Below are positions 1 to 6,622 of a stretch of 6,622 nucleotides of DNA, piece after piece (the stretch's first letter is position 1; every line of letters begins with the position of its first letter). The notes below the pieces were generated by a model, which saw nothing but the letters and a program-made list of their open reading frames with translations, was not told the DNA's origin and did no database searches. Location: positions 1-6,622 of the IMG/VR virus record IMGVR_UViG_2648501392_000016, one strand, 5' to 3'. This DNA is from a virus (taxonomy: Duplodnaviria > Heunggongvirae > Uroviricota > Caudoviricetes). The translations under genes and the position numbers were made by a program.

Positions 1-24
1 GATTCGGTATCAGAAGAGGTGAGT

Positions 25-1095
25 ATGGCTAACGCCTGGCTCAGATTATGGCATGACATGCCAAATGACCCTAAGTGGCGAACAATTGCCAGGGTGTCAG
101 GGCAGCCAATTGCAACAGTGATGGCAGTGTATATCCACCTCCTGGTGAGCGCGTCACGAAATGTCACGCGAGGTCACATTGATGTCACGACAGAAGATTT
201 GGCAAGTGCGCTCGACGTGACAGAAGAGGTAATTGATTCAATTTTGCAGACGATGCAGGGGCGGGTACTTGATGGTGATTTAATCACTGGATGGGAAAAA
301 CGCCAGGTGCTGAAAGAGGACAACGGCAATATTTCGCAAACCGCAAAATCTCCTGCAGAGCGCAAGAGGGCGCAGCGAGAGAGGGAAAGAAAGCGGGAAC
401 AAAATGGCGATTGTCACGGCGCGTCACGAAATGTCACGCACATGTCACGACGAGTCACGACAGATAAAGATACAGATAAAGATACAGATAAAGATACAGA
501 TAAAGATACAGATCAAGAAGATCAAAACACTATGGTCCATGGCGTAAAAAACGCCACGAACCAGGCAGGGGATGTTCAGACCGTCAATCCTGGTCAGCCA
601 GCAGGCACGACACCGGAAGCCGATTCGGGCGCTGTGCAGCAGGTGATGACCGCAAGGCCGGAGCAATCACACCAACTGCAGCAGCCCGAAGCCGATTCCG
701 CCATTCAGCGGGAAGCCGATCGGGTAGTCCCGGAAAACACCGGGCAGTCTGTGGGACGAGTGGATTATCCGGATGTGTTCGAACAGGTCTGGCGGGAGTA
801 CCCGTTGCGTGCCGGAGCAAACCCGAAGAAATCCGCATTCAGTGCCTGGAAGGCCAGATTGCGCGAGGGGGTGCCACCAGAGACCATGCTGGATGGTGTG
901 AGGCGTTACGCGAGATACCTGGCGGCGACCGGGAAAGCGGGAACGGAATTTGTTCAGCGAGCGACGACGTTTTTTGGGCCGGACCGGAATTTTGAAAACC
1001 CCTGGTTGCTCCCGGTAAGCGGCACGAACAACCAGCGTTGCGTGAATCACATTTCTGAACCGGACACTGAAATACCGCCGGGATTCAGGGGGTGA
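25..1095 (+). CDS. Phage replication initiation protein, YdaU/DUF1376-like (O-like initiator); in-frame alternative GTG start at 19
   Basis: Long ORF; AGAGG(14-18)/GAGGT(16-20) RBS ahead of ATG 25. N-terminus (MANAWLRLWHDMPNDPKWR...) recalled as resembling Rac prophage YdaU-type proteins. Sits directly upstream of a DnaC-like loader gene, the usual O-P arrangement. Contains internal iterons and a low-complexity TDKD linker. Confidence 0.7.
   Translation: MANAWLRLWHDMPNDPKWRTIARVSGQPIATVMAVYIHLLVSASRNVTRGHIDVTTEDLASALDVTEEVIDSILQTMQGRVLDGDLITGWEKRQVLKEDNGNISQTAKSPAERKRAQRERERKREQNGDCHGASRNVTHMSRRVTTDKDTDKDTDKDTDKDTDQEDQNTMVHGVKNATNQAGDVQTVNPGQPAGTTPEADSGAVQQVMTARPEQSHQLQQPEADSAIQREADRVVPENTGQSVGRVDYPDVFEQVWREYPLRAGANPKKSAFSAWKARLREGVPPETMLDGVRRYARYLAATGKAGTEFVQRATTFFGPDRNFENPWLLPVSGTNNQRCVNHISEPDTEIPPGFRG
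153..189. repeat. Iteron-like direct repeat array A: GTCACG/GTCACA at 153, 163, 173, 184, with an inverted copy CGTGAC at 215-220
   Basis: Read directly from sequence: four hexamer copies spaced 10, 10 and 11 bp apart (one helical turn). The 19-mer gcgtcacgaaatgtcacgc at 151-169 recurs at 421-439. Confidence 0.5.
413..459. repeat. Iteron-like direct repeat array B: five GTCACG copies at 413, 423, 433, 444, 454; candidate replication-origin iterons
   Basis: Read directly from sequence: five perfect GTCACG hexamers at 10-11 bp spacing inside the initiator gene, immediately upstream of the tandem repeat. Analogous to lambda ori iterons lying within the O gene. Confidence 0.5.
460..519. repeat. 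12-bp tandem repeat (acagataaagat), four perfect copies plus one degenerate copy; encodes (TDKD)n in the initiator protein
   Basis: Read directly from sequence: perfect copies at 460-471, 472-483, 484-495, 496-507, degenerate copy 508-519. In frame with the CDS and translated as TDKDTDKDTDKDTDKDTDQED. Confidence 0.85.
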
Positions 1096-1101
1096 CGTGT
1101 C

Positions 1102-1848
1102 ATGAAAAACATTGCGGCAGTTGGGGTTCTTGAACGTATTCGCAGACTTGCACCACAGGGGGCGGTTCCACCGTACCGGACGGTGGAGGAGTGGCGGGAA
1201 TGGCAACTTGCTGAAGGACGAAAACGCAGCGAGGAGATTAACCGCCAGAATCGCCAGTTGCGGGTGGAAAAAATCCTGAATCGTTCGGGCATCCAGCCTC
1301 TGCACAGCAAATGCTCGTTTGCGAATTATCAGGTGCAGAATGACGGGCAAAAATACGCGCTGAGCCAGGCCAAATCCATAGCTGACGAACTGATGACCGG
1401 GTGCACGAATTTTGTGTTCAGCGGTAAAACCGGCACCGGGAAAAATCACCTTGCAGCGGCGATGGGTAACCGGCTGATGGCGAAGGGGCGCAGCGTGATT
1501 ATCGTCACCGTGTCTGATGTCATGAGCGTGTTGCATGACAGCTACGACAACGGCAAATCCGGGGAAAAATTTTTACAGGAGCTTTGCGGGGTTGATTTGC
1601 TGGTCCTGGATGAAATAGGCGTTCAGCGGGAGACGAAAAACGAGCAGGTGGTATTACACCAGATAATTGATCGCCGGACAGCATCACTGTGCAGTGTCGG
1701 GATGTTAACAAACCTGAATCATGCCGCAATGAGCACGCTTCTTGGTGAGAGGATTATGGACCGGATGACCATGAGCGGTGGTCGATGGGTGACGTTTAAC
1801 TGGGATAGCTGGCGTCCAAATGTCAGCAATATGAGGGTTGTGAAGTAA
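1102..1848 (+). CDS. DnaC/IstB-like AAA+ ATPase, phage replicative helicase loader (Rac YdaV-like)
   Basis: 248-aa ORF starting 7 nt after the upstream stop. Walker A-like FSGKTGTGKNHLAAA and Walker B LLVLDEIG are visible in the translation; size and position match DnaC-like phage replication proteins. Confidence 0.85.
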   Translation: MKNIAAVGVLERIRRLAPQGAVPPYRTVEEWREWQLAEGRKRSEEINRQNRQLRVEKILNRSGIQPLHSKCSFANYQVQNDGQKYALSQAKSIADELMTGCTNFVFSGKTGTGKNHLAAAMGNRLMAKGRSVIIVTVSDVMSVLHDSYDNGKSGEKFLQELCGVDLLVLDEIGVQRETKNEQVVLHQIIDRRTASLCSVGMLTNLNHAAMSTLLGERIMDRMTMSGGRWVTFNWDSWRPNVSNMRVVK

Positions 1849-1869
1849 TTTTGTCCGGAGGAAATTTTA

Positions 1870-2640
1870 ATGGAAACCGTATCTGACGCACTGAAAGCAC
1901 TGAAAAAAGCCTCTTCACATGTGGTGGCAGCTCGCCTTGGAATCAGTCGTGAAGAGGCTGTCAACGAGCTGTGGGAACTCAAAAGAAATGGCGTCGTTGA
2001 TAAAACTGGTCACACCTGGTTTCTGGCTGGCGAAGGTGAATCCCTGGTAACCGAAGAGCTGCCAGTAAAATCTGAAGCACAGGATATGCTGACCGGGGAG
2101 GTCGAACAAAAAGTTACCGCAGACATGATGATTGAGTTTATCGGTCAGGATGGGGCTAAAACGTGTGAGGAACTGGCGGGTAAGTTCGGCGTCAGTACTC
2201 GCAAGGTTGCTTCCACGCTGGCGGTGGTAACCGCAACGGGGCGGCTGGCACGCGTTAATCAGAGCGGTAAATTTTGTTACTGCATGCCGGGCGATAATTT
2301 ACCAGCAGAGTCGAAAGCCGCGCTGGTAACGGAAAATGATGGTAAGGCCTTTCCTCAGCCAGCAGGTGCTGCGTTACCAGTCCGGGAAGCCGCAACACAG
2401 GAAGAAATTAAAACAGAAACTGTGGCGGACATTGTGCAGCCGTTGCTATCGTTTACCGAAACGCAAGCAGATGAGCTGATTTTTCCGTCCCTGCGCAGGG
2501 CAAACCTGGCGCTGCGCAGGGCGAAAAGTGATGTTCAGAAGTGGGAGCGAATCTGCGCCGCGCTGCGGGAGCTGAACAAGCACCGGGATATTGTTCGACA
2601 GATTACTGATTCTTCCCGCCGTGTTGTATCGGAAAAGTGA
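1870..2640 (+). CDS. Phage hypothetical protein (256 aa); N-terminal region may be winged-helix-like
   Basis: GGAGG RBS at 1857-1861, 8 nt before ATG 1870. Uninterrupted ORF in the same orientation as the replication genes. No recognisable catalytic motif. Confidence 0.65.
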   Translation: METVSDALKALKKASSHVVAARLGISREEAVNELWELKRNGVVDKTGHTWFLAGEGESLVTEELPVKSEAQDMLTGEVEQKVTADMMIEFIGQDGAKTCEELAGKFGVSTRKVASTLAVVTATGRLARVNQSGKFCYCMPGDNLPAESKAALVTENDGKAFPQPAGAALPVREAATQEEIKTETVADIVQPLLSFTETQADELIFPSLRRANLALRRAKSDVQKWERICAALRELNKHRDIVRQITDSSRRVVSEK

Positions 2641-2655
2641 TTGCCGAAGGCGCTT

Positions 2656-3081
2656 ATGGCAAAAGTATTTACACAAGAAGAGCGAGAAAAAATTAAAGGG
2701 CAGGTTGTTGAGCTAGTACGCCGGAGTGGGCGCGAGACGTTACGGCAACTGGAAGCCAAGACAGGTGCGACAAGATATCTGATGAGCGTTCTTGCCAGAG
2801 AGCTGGTTGCCAGTGGTGATGTATATCACTCTGGCTATGGGTTGTTCCCGTCAGAACAGGCGCGTAAGGACTGGCAAAACGCCCGCAAAAAACTCTCGAG
2901 GGCAAAGGTGAAGAAACCTGTTGTGGTTGATCCGGGCCTTATCTGGACATTACCCGACGGAGAAATACACCGCTACGACAGGCGTATGAACATAATCTGT
3001 CGCGAGTGCCGGAAGAGCGAAGCTATGCAGCGTGTACTGGCATTTTATCAAGGAAATGTTAGATATTTTAGACGTTACTAG
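2656..3081 (+). CDS. Phage hypothetical protein (about 141 aa); track ORF begins at TTG 2641 but ATG 2656 with a GAAGG RBS is preferred
   Basis: ORF directly follows the upstream stop at 2640; GAAGG at 2645-2649 precedes ATG 2656. Basic C-terminus containing a CxxC pair (CRECRK). Does not match lambda NinB as I recall it. Confidence 0.6.
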   Translation: MAKVFTQEEREKIKGQVVELVRRSGRETLRQLEAKTGATRYLMSVLARELVASGDVYHSGYGLFPSEQARKDWQNARKKLSRAKVKKPVVVDPGLIWTLPDGEIHRYDRRMNIICRECRKSEAMQRVLAFYQGNVRYFRRY

Positions 3082-3108
3082 ATTAAAGAGCATTAGTTCA
3101 GATGTGAA

Positions 3109-3137
3109 TTGACATTTTCATGGCGCAGGGTAGAGCC
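3109..3137 (+). promoter_or_regulatory. Candidate sigma70 promoter for the cargo island (perfect -35 TTGACA, weak -10); alternative extended -10 TGcTACACT at 3213-3221
   Basis: TTGACA at 3109-3114 with TAGAGC 16 bp downstream (3 of 6 matches to TATAAT). Lies in the 153-bp gap between the phage genes and the QueH-like gene. Sequence-only guess. Confidence 0.2.
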
Positions 3138-3234
3138 AGCGTGGTTGTCCGCTTTGCGTCAAAACCAGAGATTACCAGATTTAGACATATATTCCCGATA
3201 GCCCTGCTCTGATGCTACACTCTGTGCTATTTTC

Positions 3235-3921
3235 ATGACCCCAATAAAAATATTTATGACTATTGCTGATTTCAAACGGCCTAAATTGGAGCTTCCAAAC
3301 GGGGCAAACAAACTACTACTGCACTCTTGCTGTGCTCCATGTTCCGGTGAAGTGATGGAGGCGCTTCAGGCCTCGGGAATCGACTACACCATCTTTTTCT
3401 ACAACCCGAACATTCATCCTCAGAAAGAGTATTTAATTCGTAAGGATGAAAATATTCGCTTTGCTGAACAACACGGCGTGCCGTTTATCGATGCTGATTA
3501 CGACACCGACAACTGGTTTGAACGTGCCAAAGGAATGGAATGGGAGCCTGAGAGGGGGATCCGTTGTACCATGTGTTTTGACATGCGTTTTGAGCGGACA
3601 GCGTTGTACGCTGCTGAAAATGGTTTCAGTGTGATCAGTAGTTCACTGGGCATTTCACGCTGGAAAAATATGCAGCAGGTTAACGAGTGTGGGCGGCGAG
3701 CTGTTGCGCATTATCCGGGTATGGTGTACTGGGATTATAACTGGCGCAAGCAGGGCGGCTCGTCCCGTATGATTGAAATCAGCAAGCGCGAAAAATTCTA
3801 TCAGCAGGAATATTGTGGCTGTGTGTATTCTCTGCGCGATACCAATCTACACCGCAAATCTCAGGGACGCCCTCTTATCAAAATTGGCCAACTCCACTAC
3901 GGAAAAGAAGAGAAGGAGTGA
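3235..3921 (+). CDS. QueH-family (DUF208) epoxyqueuosine-reductase-like Fe-S protein; alternative start ATG 3256
   Basis: The translation carries the [11 protein letters not shown] and FYNPNIHP motifs that I recall as hallmarks of DUF208/QueH, plus further Cys pairs (CTMC, CGC) consistent with metal-cluster ligation. No strong SD before either candidate ATG. Confidence 0.65.
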
Positions 3922-3991
3922 TTTTATGGATCACCTTTCTGATTGATTTCATATTGGCGAGGTGACGTGAGTTAAGTAGAATTGCTGCGGG

Positions 3992-4016
3992 TGCCTGAGG
4001 CTGTCTGCCTCAGGCA
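3992..4016. other. Perfect 9-bp inverted repeat (TGCCTGAGG, 7-nt loop, CCTCAGGCA) between the QueH-like and methyltransferase genes
   Basis: Read directly from sequence. No T-tract follows (downstream is gaacaccaaaagg), so it is not a canonical intrinsic terminator; it could be a protein-binding site or an RNA stem-loop. Confidence 0.4.
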
Positions 4017-4099
4017 TGAACACCAAAAGGCAGATAGAGAAAGCCCCAGTTAACATTACGCGTCCTGTAAGACGCTCAACATTAATCTGAGGCATATGG

Positions 4100-5224
4100 A
4101 TGCGGATGAAAGAATTAAATAAATTCAGAGTGATAGACCTCTTTTGTGGGGCAGGTGGATTATCTTATGGTTTTCTTCATGGAGAGATGTCTGACTACTT
4201 TGAAAGTATCCTTGCTATTGATAATAATGCTGCAGCTATAAATACCTACAATGCCAATTTTGGTTTGCATGGAGTTCAGGCAAATATTGAGGAGTGGGCA
4301 TCCAGCAATACTGTTCCTGAGGCTGATGTGGTCATAGGTGGCCCCCCGTGTCAGGGATTCAGTTTATTGAATAAGAATCGTTATGGTGATCACCGAAGAG
4401 CATTGTGGGAGCCTTATATGGATGTCATTGAGCGTTCAAGGGCTTGTATGTTCGTCATGGAAAATGTCCCCGGATTGCTGATAAGCGATGAGTTTGCGGA
4501 CATTACGTTTAGAGCGAAATCCATGGGCTTTATTCTGCTTAATCCAATGGTGTTGAATACTGCTGACTATGGAGTACCTCAGACAAGAAAACGAACGATA
4601 GCAATCGGTATCAAACGAGAACTCTTCGATGTGCATAGTATTCCGGCGTTCCCGCCAGCACCAACGCATCGTTCCCCTGATAAGGATGTCGCTTTGCCTG
4701 AATGGGTCTGTACGCGTGATGCAATTGGTGACTTACCTGCTCCTGTTGGAACTGATATTCGTAATGAACTTCCTCCGCTGAACTTACATTTTGGGCGTAA
4801 TCCCACACCTGTTTCTCTGGAGCGATATAAAGCGGTTCCACCAGGAGGTAACCGTTTCGATTTACAGAAAAAAAGACCTGATATAACCCCGGCGTGCTGG
4901 CTAAAAAAGAAATCTGGAGGGACCGATTTGTTTGGACGTCTGTGGTGGGACAAACCTTCAGTAACGATTCGTACTGAGTTTTTCAAACCGGAGAAAGGGC
5001 GATATTTACATCCGGAAGAGGATCGGCCAATAACTCATCGTGAGGCAGCGAGATTAATGTCTTTTCCTGATAATTTCATTTTTACCGGTTCAAAAACTGA
5101 GATTGCAAAGCAGATCGGGAATGCTGTTCCACCGCTATTTGCGGCAAAAATCGCACAATATGTGTATGGAGTTTTGCAGGGACGGTATAAGAATAACATC
5201 AGTAAGAATAGTCAAGCAGCCTGA
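4100..5224 (+). CDS. DNA (cytosine-5)-methyltransferase, type II R-M modification subunit
   Basis: Canonical m5C-MTase motifs in the translation: motif I DLFCGAGGLSYGF, motif IV GGPPCQGFS, motif VI ENVPGL, motif VIII QTRKR, motif X GNAVPP. GAGG RBS at 4088-4091. Confidence 0.9.
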   Translation: MRMKELNKFRVIDLFCGAGGLSYGFLHGEMSDYFESILAIDNNAAAINTYNANFGLHGVQANIEEWASSNTVPEADVVIGGPPCQGFSLLNKNRYGDHRRALWEPYMDVIERSRACMFVMENVPGLLISDEFADITFRAKSMGFILLNPMVLNTADYGVPQTRKRTIAIGIKRELFDVHSIPAFPPAPTHRSPDKDVALPEWVCTRDAIGDLPAPVGTDIRNELPPLNLHFGRNPTPVSLERYKAVPPGGNRFDLQKKRPDITPACWLKKKSGGTDLFGRLWWDKPSVTIRTEFFKPEKGRYLHPEEDRPITHREAARLMSFPDNFIFTGSKTEIAKQIGNAVPPLFAAKIAQYVYGVLQGRYKNNISKNSQAA

Positions 5225-5237
5225 AGGAAATCCAGAA

Positions 5238-6116
5238 ATGAATGGAGATTTGGTTGACAGCATAGTTGGTTTTGCTGAAGCCAGAAAGGAGTTTCATGCC
5301 CAATTGTTACTGAATACGCTCACAATTAATACTGCCGGAGTTGTTAGTAACGCAGATAGCAGTAACAAAAACAGTAAAGCTATAGCAAGAGAAATTGCTC
5401 GCTTCTTGCAGGCTGAAACGATTGGTGAACGTGTTGCAGGGCAAACATCTGGTAATCAGTTTGAGAGTATCTGCGCAGAGTTTATAGAAAAAACCTTTTT
5501 TAAACTCAGCCACTTACGCCCTGGAAAATGGAATGTACATCAGGTTTCTGGTAGAAACAGATTAGAGATAGCTAAATATGAACAATATGCCCATCTTATA
5601 GCATTGGATAGTGCTGCAAAAAGTAATCCTCAGCTAGCTGCTGCACTGGGGAGTGATTATACGATTTCACCAGATATTATTGTTGAAAGAGAACCTGAAT
5701 GTGATCAAGTTATCAACAGTCCTGAATTACTGGTGGATGATTCTGTTACCCGCATGTCAGCTCTCAGGAGTTCGAATGGTGGGAAACCAATATTACACGC
5801 AAGTATTTCCTGCAAATGGACAATAAGAAGCGACCGGGCCCAGAATGCTCGTTCTGAGGCATTAAATCTTATTCGCAACCGTAAGGGAAATCTCCCTCAT
5901 GTAATGGTTGTTACTGCTGAGCCTACTCCAAGTCGTCTGGCGTCTATTGCTCTTGGTACTGGTGATATAGATTGCGTGTATCATTTTGCGCTTTATGAAC
6001 TTATATCAGCAGTTGAAATACTGGGGCTCAGCGATGCAGCTGACATGCTTTCCGTGATGGTTAATGGTAAAAGATTAAAGGATATTTCTGATCTTCCCTT
6101 GGATCTTGCAGTCTGA
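5238..6116 (+). CDS. Type II restriction endonuclease, NgoMIV/Cfr10I/Bse634I family (predicted CCGG-core site, possibly GCCGGC); start ATG 5238 preferred over track start 5103
   Basis: AGGA RBS at 5225-5228, 9 nt before ATG 5238, which lies 13 nt after the MTase stop. The translation has PD at 145-146, SCK at 191-193 and RSDR at 197-200. Numbered from ATG 5238, E76, D146, K193, R197, D199, R200, E207 and R233 all sit at a constant +6 offset from the NgoMIV residues E70, D140, K187, R191, D193, R194, E201 and R227 as I recall them from the literature. Confidence 0.75.
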   Translation: MNGDLVDSIVGFAEARKEFHAQLLLNTLTINTAGVVSNADSSNKNSKAIAREIARFLQAETIGERVAGQTSGNQFESICAEFIEKTFFKLSHLRPGKWNVHQVSGRNRLEIAKYEQYAHLIALDSAAKSNPQLAAALGSDYTISPDIIVEREPECDQVINSPELLVDDSVTRMSALRSSNGGKPILHASISCKWTIRSDRAQNARSEALNLIRNRKGNLPHVMVVTAEPTPSRLASIALGTGDIDCVYHFALYELISAVEILGLSDAADMLSVMVNGKRLKDISDLPLDLAV

Positions 6117-6188
6117 CATCTCTACGTAAATAGAGTCTGTCATATTTTAACTGTGATGGCACGTCATTGACTTCAGTACATTTTTACT

Positions 6189-6214
6189 AACCCGCTTCGC
6201 GGGTTTTGTTTTTT
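6189..6214 (+). terminator. Rho-independent terminator closing the R-M operon
   Basis: 7-bp GC-rich stem AACCCGC/GCGGGTT with a 3-nt loop, followed by the T-tract TTTTGTTTTTT; 73 bp downstream of the endonuclease stop. Confidence 0.7.
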
Positions 6215-6286
6215 CCTGGCATTCTGGTTTACAATCCACACGCCAGCCTGAACAACTGGCACCTGCTGCGCCAGCAGAGACAACCG

Positions 6287-6532
6287 ATGGCGCACAATAC
6301 CAAACACCACAATTCTGATGCCGACCCTGCCAGCAGACACGGACGGCGCTCTCACGCATTCAAATATGACTGGTACCAGCATGACCAATGCACTGAAGAA
6401 CAGGCCGAGTGGCTGATTCAGAATTACCGCAGACGTGGATACCAGTTTCAGAAAGGCCTCAGTCCTGACTTCCGACGCTGGATAATTTCCGTCAGGCTCC
6501 CTTATTCCGAACGCCCGCCGCGTCCGTCCTGA
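6287..6532 (+). pseudogene. Hypothetical ORF apparently truncated by the IS insertion (its stop codon is supplied by the IS terminus TGA)
   Basis: The open frame (from 6206; first ATG with a weak RBS at 6287) runs without a stop until the TGA at 6530-6532, which is the first three bases of the IS inverted repeat. The product is not recognised and coding status is uncertain. Confidence 0.3.
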
Positions 6533-6622
6533 ACCGCCCCGGGAATCCTGGAGACTAAACTTCCTGAGAAAGAGGTAAACAGGATGACTAAAAATACTCG
6601 TTTTTCCCCTGAAGTCCGTCAA
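6530..6622 (+). mobile_element. IS3-family insertion sequence (IS629/IS1203-like), left end; continues beyond the window
   Basis: Terminal sequence TGAACCGCCCCGGG... and an OrfA N-terminus MTKNTRFSPEVRQ recalled as the IS629/IS1203 group; 5'-TG terminus is typical of the IS3 family. Confidence 0.7.
6584..6622 (+). CDS. IS3-family transposase OrfA (partial, N-terminal 13 codons in window)
   Basis: GAGG RBS at 6572-6575 then ATG 6584; translation MTKNTRFSPEVRQ matches the remembered OrfA start of IS629-like elements. Truncated by the window edge. Confidence 0.7.
   Translation, partial: MTKNTRFSPEVRQ

Follow-up and report, generated by a model that had tools for sequence, protein, structure and literature searches.

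The closest described relative of the restriction-modification (R-M) system examined here is NgoMIV (NgoAIV) of Neisseria gonorrhoeae, a restriction endonuclease of type IIF, which cleaves G^CCGGC and is represented by PDB entries 1FIU and 4ABT. Other nucleases of the CCGG family, such as Cfr10I, Bse634I, and SgrAI (R^CCGGY, CR^CCGGYG), belong to the PD-(D/E)XK alpha-class fold family. The published motif for the CCGG-family nucleases is PDX46-53KX13E, and a published RXDR stretch reads CCGG in the same way in NgoMIV, Bse634I, and SgrAI. An R-M system has reportedly been found on the Shiga toxin 2 (Stx2) prophage of Escherichia coli O104:H4; like the system described below it is a type II R-M system carried as nonessential cargo of a lambdoid prophage, but it is said to differ in enzyme family and site. 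The hok/sok loci of plasmid R1 and of prophages (hokD/hokW type) also bear on this comparison, as hok/sok kills post-segregationally through a stable mRNA made from a weak promoter, and type II R-M systems are likewise able to act as addiction modules (PMC3874152). Here, we analyzed a 6,622-nucleotide stretch of Caudoviricetes DNA (IMG/VR record IMGVR_UViG_2648501392_000016, positions 1 to 6,622), called the window at its full length, in which two plus-strand genes are predicted to encode a DNA methyltransferase (M) and a restriction endonuclease (R). We consider it highly probable that these genes form an intact type II R-M operon, with an NgoMIV-like GCCGGC nuclease and a 5-methylcytosine (m5C) methyltransferase, carried as cargo of a lambdoid E. 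coli prophage within a hok/sok locus. The two genes, and the codons of R on which the comparison with NgoMIV depends, are as follows:

4100-5224, plus strand: M, C5-cytosine DNA methyltransferase (374 aa; start at ATG 4106 favored), from PF00145, TIGR00675, motifs, and RefSeq WP_024184491.1
5225-5229, plus strand: ribosome-binding site AGGAA for R, read from the sequence, 8 nt 5' of ATG 5238
5238-6116, plus strand: R, NgoMIV-family type II restriction endonuclease (292 aa), from PF09015, the match to NgoMIV 1FIU, and RefSeq WP_001012717.1
5673-5675, plus strand: codon of R D146
5814-5816, plus strand: codon of R K193
5826-5837, plus strand: codons of R RSDR
5856-5858, plus strand: codon of R E207

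The open reading frame (ORF) that a program lists for R opens at TTG 5103, whereas its real start is ATG 5238, 13 nt past the M stop, and the resulting length of 292 aa is the same as that of the nearest homologues in Pantoea and Cronobacter. R matches the whole of Pfam PF09015 (NgoMIV_restric; profile positions 1 to 275 of 275, 422 bits against a cutoff of 23.2, E = 1e-126) and NgoMIV in the PDB (1FIU/4ABT; E = 1e-118). It is in the same length class as crystallized NgoMIV and is 65.8% identical to it over 281 residues (alignment to NgoMIV residues 5 to 286). An earlier description made from the letters and ORFs of the window (the sequence-only reading) had given the nuclease as PD...SCK...RSDR, with its key residues at a constant +6 offset from those of NgoMIV. 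Both statements hold: PD lies at residues 145-146, SCK at 191-193, and RSDR at 197-200, and in the pairwise alignment all 14 NgoMIV residues checked (D34, S36, Q63, E70, D140, S185, C186, K187, R191, S192, D193, R194, E201, and R227) are identical in R at +6, and +7 applies solely to the part N-terminal of an indel of 1 aa near residue 25. The catalytic set P145-D146-X46-K193-X13-E207, together with E76, corresponds to D140, K187, E201, and E70 of NgoMIV and follows the published family motif; the catalytic residues are intact, and the disabling substitutions named by the sequence-only reading as evidence that would count against it were not seen among the residues checked. When 11 of the checked catalytic and contact residues were scored across 80 homologous R loci, drawn from Proteobacteria, Acidobacteria, Planctomycetes, Firmicutes, and Chloroflexi, all were invariant. 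The NgoMIV-type nucleases are a very large family of unusual conservation, at 60 to 89% identity across phyla. In the PDB sequence search with R (E up to 0.01), NgoMIV was the sole match, and Cfr10I, Bse634I, and SgrAI were not detected, although R has in common with them the fold family, the PDX46-53KX13E motif, and the RXDR stretch. Judged by sequence, R is an orthologue-grade relative of NgoMIV.

The stretch R197-S-D199-R200 of R equals R191-S-D193-R194 of NgoMIV, which reads the CCGG core, and Q69, D40, and R233 of R match Q63, D34, and R227 of NgoMIV; all three are invariant among the 80 homologues. NgoMIV Q63 is a published minor-groove contact to the outer C. D34 and R227 reportedly contact the outer base pair, in the work of Deibert et al. 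from 2000. Because the RSDR stretch, the motif spacing, and the outer-pair residues are the same as in NgoMIV and invariant in the homologues, GCCGGC is the best prediction for the target of R, and CCGG-family alternatives such as RCCGGY are a minority option. The earlier proposal of a CCGG core, plausibly GCCGGC, is thus in keeping with the solved NgoMIV sequence and the published contact residues. In the predicted mechanism, R would bind GCCGGC with the tip of the RSDR helix on the CCGG core and with Q69, D40, and R233 on the outer G:C pair, and would cut G^CCGGC through a metal site formed by D146, K193, and E207 (plus E76). By analogy with NgoMIV, it would probably act as a tetramer needing two sites.

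M matches Pfam PF00145 (profile positions 1 to 320 of 324, E = 4e-54) and TIGR00675 (154.5 bits; cutoff, 100.65). The full m5C motif set that had been claimed for it was recovered, with FCGAGG at residues 15-20 (motif I), PPCQ at 82-85 (IV), ENV at 121-123 (VI), QTRKR at 161-165 (VIII), RE at 314-315 (IX), and GNAV at 340-343 (X), and a variable region lies between motifs VIII and IX, as expected of an m5C methyltransferase. The codon of the catalytic Cys84 is at 4349-4351. For the start of M, ATG 4106 is more likely than ATG 4100, as 4106 is the start of RefSeq WP_024184491.1, agrees with the aligned N termini of homologues, and is preceded by GTG at codon 4100 in the divergent copy of strain A34. 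Of the span 4100 to 6116 given by the sequence-only reading, the ORFs and the plus strand are therefore confirmed, while the M start probably shifts.

M is where the locus departs from NgoMIV. Upstream of the NgoMIV-type nuclease, most of the 80 loci have an m5C methylase of ~318 aa, in the same M-then-R order as in the window, but where tblastn detects that methylase it is 24 to 35% identical to M of the window (372 to 374 aa; ~25% identity). M does not belong to the ~318-aa lineage, a distinction judged from the neighbors of the 80 R homologues and not from the Neisseria M.NgoMIV protein itself. A search seeded with a 319-aa methylase from a Neisseriales locus returned no named M.NgoMIV in its top 120 matches. 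The claim of a complete NgoMIV-family R-M system consequently stands for the completeness of the pair and for R, with an m5C methylase as its partner, but not for M, which is of a different m5C lineage. That lineage is itself well populated (65 to 80% identity, mainly in Gammaproteobacteria). For the closest relatives of M, from Cronobacter dublinensis and from a lambdoid prophage of Klebsiella michiganensis, the next gene encodes an NgoMIV-type nuclease of 292 aa. For relatives at 67 to 75% identity (Salmonella Cerro, Edwardsiella tarda, Idiomarina, and one small contig carrying Rep3), the next gene instead encodes an unrelated HNH-domain nuclease of ~325 aa and overlaps or abuts the M stop. 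The HNH nuclease genes paired with M homologues are at these positions:

L083, 5088-6071: HNH nuclease
L085, 5105-6073: HNH nuclease
L087, 5088-6068: HNH nuclease
L089, 5088-6071: HNH nuclease

In family (NCBIfam) and PDB scans, the HNH partner matched the generic HNH motif only. Whichever nuclease is the partner, the target-recognition region of M matches the catalytic domains in conservation (72 to 83% identity). A single methylation specificity is probably shared by the two unrelated nucleases, the NgoMIV type and the HNH type.

With M ending at 5224 and R beginning at 5238, the two genes adjoin each other in the same orientation, and the pair recurs: the same M lineage and R, at a spacing of 10 to 19 nt, are found in C. 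dublinensis and in the K. michiganensis prophage. These features are those of a complete type II R-M system. Within E. coli, a 2,092-bp cassette containing both genes is present once each in 60 of 5,426 complete genomes (1.1%) and is always chromosomal; 59 of the 60 copies are at least 99% identical, and the M and R ORFs are intact in all of them. The carriers include O157:H7, O111:H11, O103:H2, O39:NM, enteropathogenic E. coli (EPEC), and commensal isolates. The cassette of strain A34 is divergent (97.4%), with both ORFs open and with 19 synonymous and 11 nonsynonymous codon changes in M and 14 and 5, respectively, in R. Given about threefold more nonsynonymous than synonymous sites, this synonymous excess points to purifying selection on both M and R. 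Isolated phages hardly ever encode R, a homologue (56% identity) being present in 1 of 50,697 records. RefSeq names the two proteins "DNA cytosine methyltransferase" and "NgoMIV family type II restriction endonuclease"; the pair is already known at the level of annotation, and its family assignment is not new. K. michiganensis and related contigs (L091 to L093, 5001-7004) have the cassette of M (79% identity) and NgoMIV-type R at the corresponding place of a lambdoid prophage, in the early-right region, flanked by DinI and lambda-P-like genes on one side and by LexA-like, DUF968, and Q genes on the other.

Compared with NgoMIV, the system of the window is further set apart by its presence in E. 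coli, its location on a prophage, and its hok-derived expression signals. The elements around the two genes are as follows:

3954-3982, plus strand: sigma-70 promoter-like site TTGGCG-17-TAGAAT, hok/sok-derived and presumed to be the promoter of the M-R operon (promoter scan; identical site 5' of intact hokD in L094)
3989-4093, plus strand: remnant of the hok/mok mRNA leader, with a 5' hairpin and the mok Shine-Dalgarno sequence GAGG at 4089-4092, now the 5' untranslated region (UTR) of M (Rfam RF01794 and alignment)
4094-6185, plus strand: R-M cassette of 2,092 bp in place of ~300 bp of the hok locus interior (junction alignments)
6189-6214, plus strand: intrinsic terminator AACCCGC-TTC-GCGGGTT plus T-run, hok-derived, ending the M-R unit (homologous to the intact hokD terminator)

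The cassette has recombined into a hok/sok type I toxin-antitoxin locus, replacing the mok and hok frames and keeping the promoter, the ~105-nt leader, and the terminator. We mapped the junctions by alignment to phage HannyBb and to a prophage of E. coli WP7-S18-ESBL-09, which has the same QueH and downstream genes and an intact hokD in the arrangement QueH-hokD-hypothetical protein. Against the intact loci (L094 and L002), the window is nearly identical as far as the mok Shine-Dalgarno sequence (…AATCTGAGGC, ending at 4093) and unrelated beyond it, and homology returns at the terminator (…ACTAACCCGCTTCGCGGGTTTT, from 6186). Along with the 3' fold-back region, the ~300 bp replaced comprised the mok and hok ORFs. 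On the minus strand of L094 (1997-2056) we read TTGCCT-17-TAACCT, by analogy with plasmid R1, as the Sok promoter, which would also have been lost together with the Sok 5' end; a consensus promoter scan flagged no Sok promoter, even in the intact hokD locus. Promoter, leader with the mok ribosome-binding site, and terminator are thus homologous to those of known hok/sok loci and in the same order, but the mok and hok ORFs are absent and the Sok-promoter segment, on the L094 reading, is missing, leaving a remnant only. The Rfam sok/hok-leader model (RF01794) matches 3989-4169 with 61 bits (gathering threshold, 59), aligning well only over positions 1 to ~88 of 157 and starting, at 3989, 7 nt 3' of the promoter-like site; the intact hok/sok locus of HannyBb scores 115 bits with the same model.

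M begins 6 to 12 nt past the left junction, and its native upstream region is therefore gone. The Klebsiella copy of the cassette has an unrelated upstream region of its own, with no hok leader and no sok match. The junction between leader and M is common to all 60 E. coli carriers, and A34 shares both junctions despite different outer flanks, which argues that the unit spreading among prophages is the chimera of hok promoter and leader, M, R, and hok terminator. GC content is 0.40 to 0.48 in the cassette versus 0.49 to 0.61 in the replication genes (1-2800). The retained terminator (6189-6205) is one loop base shorter than its counterpart in L094 (2284-2301; TTC versus TTCG), with the same stem. 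A match to RyhB at 6155-6212 (24 bits against a gathering threshold of 55; E = 0.47) was rejected as just the terminator hairpin.

The chromosome of E. coli E110019 matches positions 1 to 6529 of the window at 99.9% identity, and there the counterpart (L001) lies within a lambdoid prophage adjoining tRNA-Ser. The genes 5' of the hok-derived promoter in the window are as follows:

19-1095, plus strand: replisome-organizer (O-like) protein (ORF and family profile matches)
1102-1848, plus strand: DnaC-like loader (ORF and family profile matches)
1870-2640, plus strand: DUF1627 protein (ORF and family profile matches)
2641-3081, plus strand: DUF977 protein (ORF and family profile matches)
3235-3921, plus strand: QueH epoxyqueuosine reductase (Pfam PF02677, E = 1e-65)

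Downstream of the R-M pair in E110019 are DUF968, RusA, lysis, and head genes; holin, lysozyme, terminase, and capsid genes lie 3' of the pair both there and in O157:H7 Z563. The pair is lambdoid prophage cargo situated in the early-right region, between the replication genes and the Q/lysis genes, which bears out the earlier statement that it is embedded in a prophage. In contrast to the Stx2 prophage of O104:H4, the carrier prophage in O157:H7 Z563 is not Stx-converting. The prophage of E110019 is degraded outside the window (L001 10497-17636 and 38341-44636), with a frameshifted integrase and portal, an internal stop in the large terminase subunit, and two IS3-family insertions. It also has a second, unrelated DNA methyltransferase gene, 3' of the RusA and DUF1133 genes (L001 29115-30191). 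The QueH gene stands directly 5' of the hok-derived promoter, and the same protein (WP_000150294.1) adjoins an intact hokD in other prophages.

From this arrangement, M and then R would be expressed on one mRNA from the hok promoter, M would protect the GCCGGC sites of the lysogen, and the lysogen would restrict unmethylated incoming DNA. Loss of the prophage could then be punished by post-segregational restriction, so that one addiction module would have been exchanged for another. These roles in defense and addiction are putative; the exchange of hok/sok for an R-M system fits the addiction idea without proving it, since both can be post-segregational killers (PMC3874152).

We weighed this interpretation against other explanations of the same locus. 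The similarity to hok/sok might be incidental, with the cassette merely inserted beside a hok-like sequence and the leader playing no role in expression: the Rfam score of 61 barely exceeds the threshold, the 3' half of the model aligns poorly, and the Klebsiella cassette does with its own upstream region and no sok match. We find this extremely unlikely, as homology is near perfect to 4093 and again from 6186 with precisely the toxin-coding interior absent, the few nucleotides between junction and M leave no room for another promoter or a native 5' UTR, and the 60 carriers and the divergent A34 copy all have the same junction. A different question is whether R reads a related but other CCGG-family site, either RCCGGY, as do Cfr10I and Bse634I, or bare CCGG, with M perhaps broader than GCCGGC. 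One scaffold underlies several specificities in the CCGG family, M is outside the lineage that normally partners NgoMIV-type nucleases, and the M lineage serves an unrelated HNH nuclease elsewhere with a target-recognition region that is 72 to 76% identical. Another site is nonetheless decidedly unlikely in view of the PDB search, which returned NgoMIV alone, and of the outer-pair residues: Cfr10I, Bse634I, and SgrAI read the outer pair loosely, and Bse634I employs Asn73 and Pro203, whereas R retains the NgoMIV residues that read the outer G:C pair (Q63, as published, and, reportedly, D34 and R227), invariant in the 80 homologues.

The operon could also be present but half mute, with restriction silent or inactive in vivo and the locus acting as an orphan methyltransferase or as neutral cargo that has no defensive or stabilizing effect. 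Such a state would be in line with an expression that relies on a borrowed, weak hok promoter and leader in place of the native region upstream of M, with the decaying carrier prophage of E110019, and with the rarity of the cassette among E. coli genomes. However, both ORFs are intact in every one of the 60 copies, the catalytic residues of R are in place, the synonymous excess in A34 speaks for purifying selection on R and M alike, and the M-then-R order with a good ribosome-binding site for R is a normal functional arrangement; we therefore think a silent nuclease improbable. A distinct idea, which we hold to be a long shot, is that the operon is functionally wired into hok/sok regulation, with trans-acting Sok RNAs from sibling loci tuning M and the M:R balance. 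Homologues of the hok-type leader (query 3975-4215) are present in 3,595 of the 5,426 complete E. coli genomes, with a maximum of 7 places in one genome. The query matches a total of 3 places in E110019 and of 6 in O157:H7 Z563, so that sibling hok/sok-type loci accompany the R-M chimera in its carriers. By our reading, Sok antisense RNAs from these loci could pair with ~50 nt of the M 5' UTR, including the ribosome-binding site.

Several points count against the preferred reading, an intact NgoMIV-like R-M operon carried as prophage cargo in a hok/sok locus. The low identity of M to the methylase usually accompanying NgoMIV-type nucleases is one of them, and, as close relatives of M pair with an HNH nuclease, the specificity of M is taken solely from its partnership with R. 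The window contains no GCCGGC site, but only 1.6 ± 1.3 would be expected; the deficit is not significant, and avoidance of the site lends no support. The predicted fold of the leader (z-score, -3.15) puts GAGG in a stem, which may bear on the efficiency of M translation, and in at least one case, E110019, the carrier prophage has decayed, so that benefits at the level of the phage may be moot there. Searches of the literature turned up neither a publication on the E. coli system nor an E. coli methylome showing m5C at GCCGGC.

Two other features of the window lie outside the R-M locus. Positions 6530-6622 are presumably the left end of an IS3-family element of the IS629/IS1203 type (TGAACCGCCCCGGG…, with the start of orfA at MTKNTRFSPEVRQ). 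The element cuts the final codons off a small hypothetical gene (ORF 6287-6532) that is intact in E110019 (L001 26287-26559), and the insertion junction at 6530 is carried by none of the 15 best-matching complete genomes listed, with no match exceeding 82% query coverage. Within the O-like gene, two neighboring tandem arrays (412-518) consist of a 10-bp unit, TGTCACGACA, repeated 5 times (412-462) and a 12-bp unit, ACAGATAAAGAT, repeated 4.9 times (460-518; encoding TDKD repeats), an arrangement similar to the iteron-type origin that lies within lambda O.

The system is an ordinary, correctly auto-annotated member of a classic restriction enzyme family that ranks among the best understood, to which the replacement of the hok locus and the methylase from a noncognate lineage are small additions and not a new kind of system. 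For E. coli, the DNA of carriers, including O157:H7, O111, O103, and EPEC strains, is predicted to be m5C methylated at GCCGGC, and restriction of unmethylated DNA is likewise predicted for these strains, a trait of modest practical relevance to transformation, phage therapy, and typing with NaeI or NgoMIV. A methylase lineage common to two unrelated nucleases illustrates the modular evolution of R-M systems and, if one specificity does serve both, would represent natural nuclease swapping under a fixed methylation specificity. Should Sok RNAs from sibling loci act on the M leader, the locus would be a hybrid of a type I toxin-antitoxin and an R-M addiction module, with a behavior dependent on the other resident prophages. 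The exact exchange of a hok/sok killer for an R-M killer, with promoter, leader, and terminator reused, exemplifies the refilling of a prophage cargo slot by a functionally analogous selfish module.

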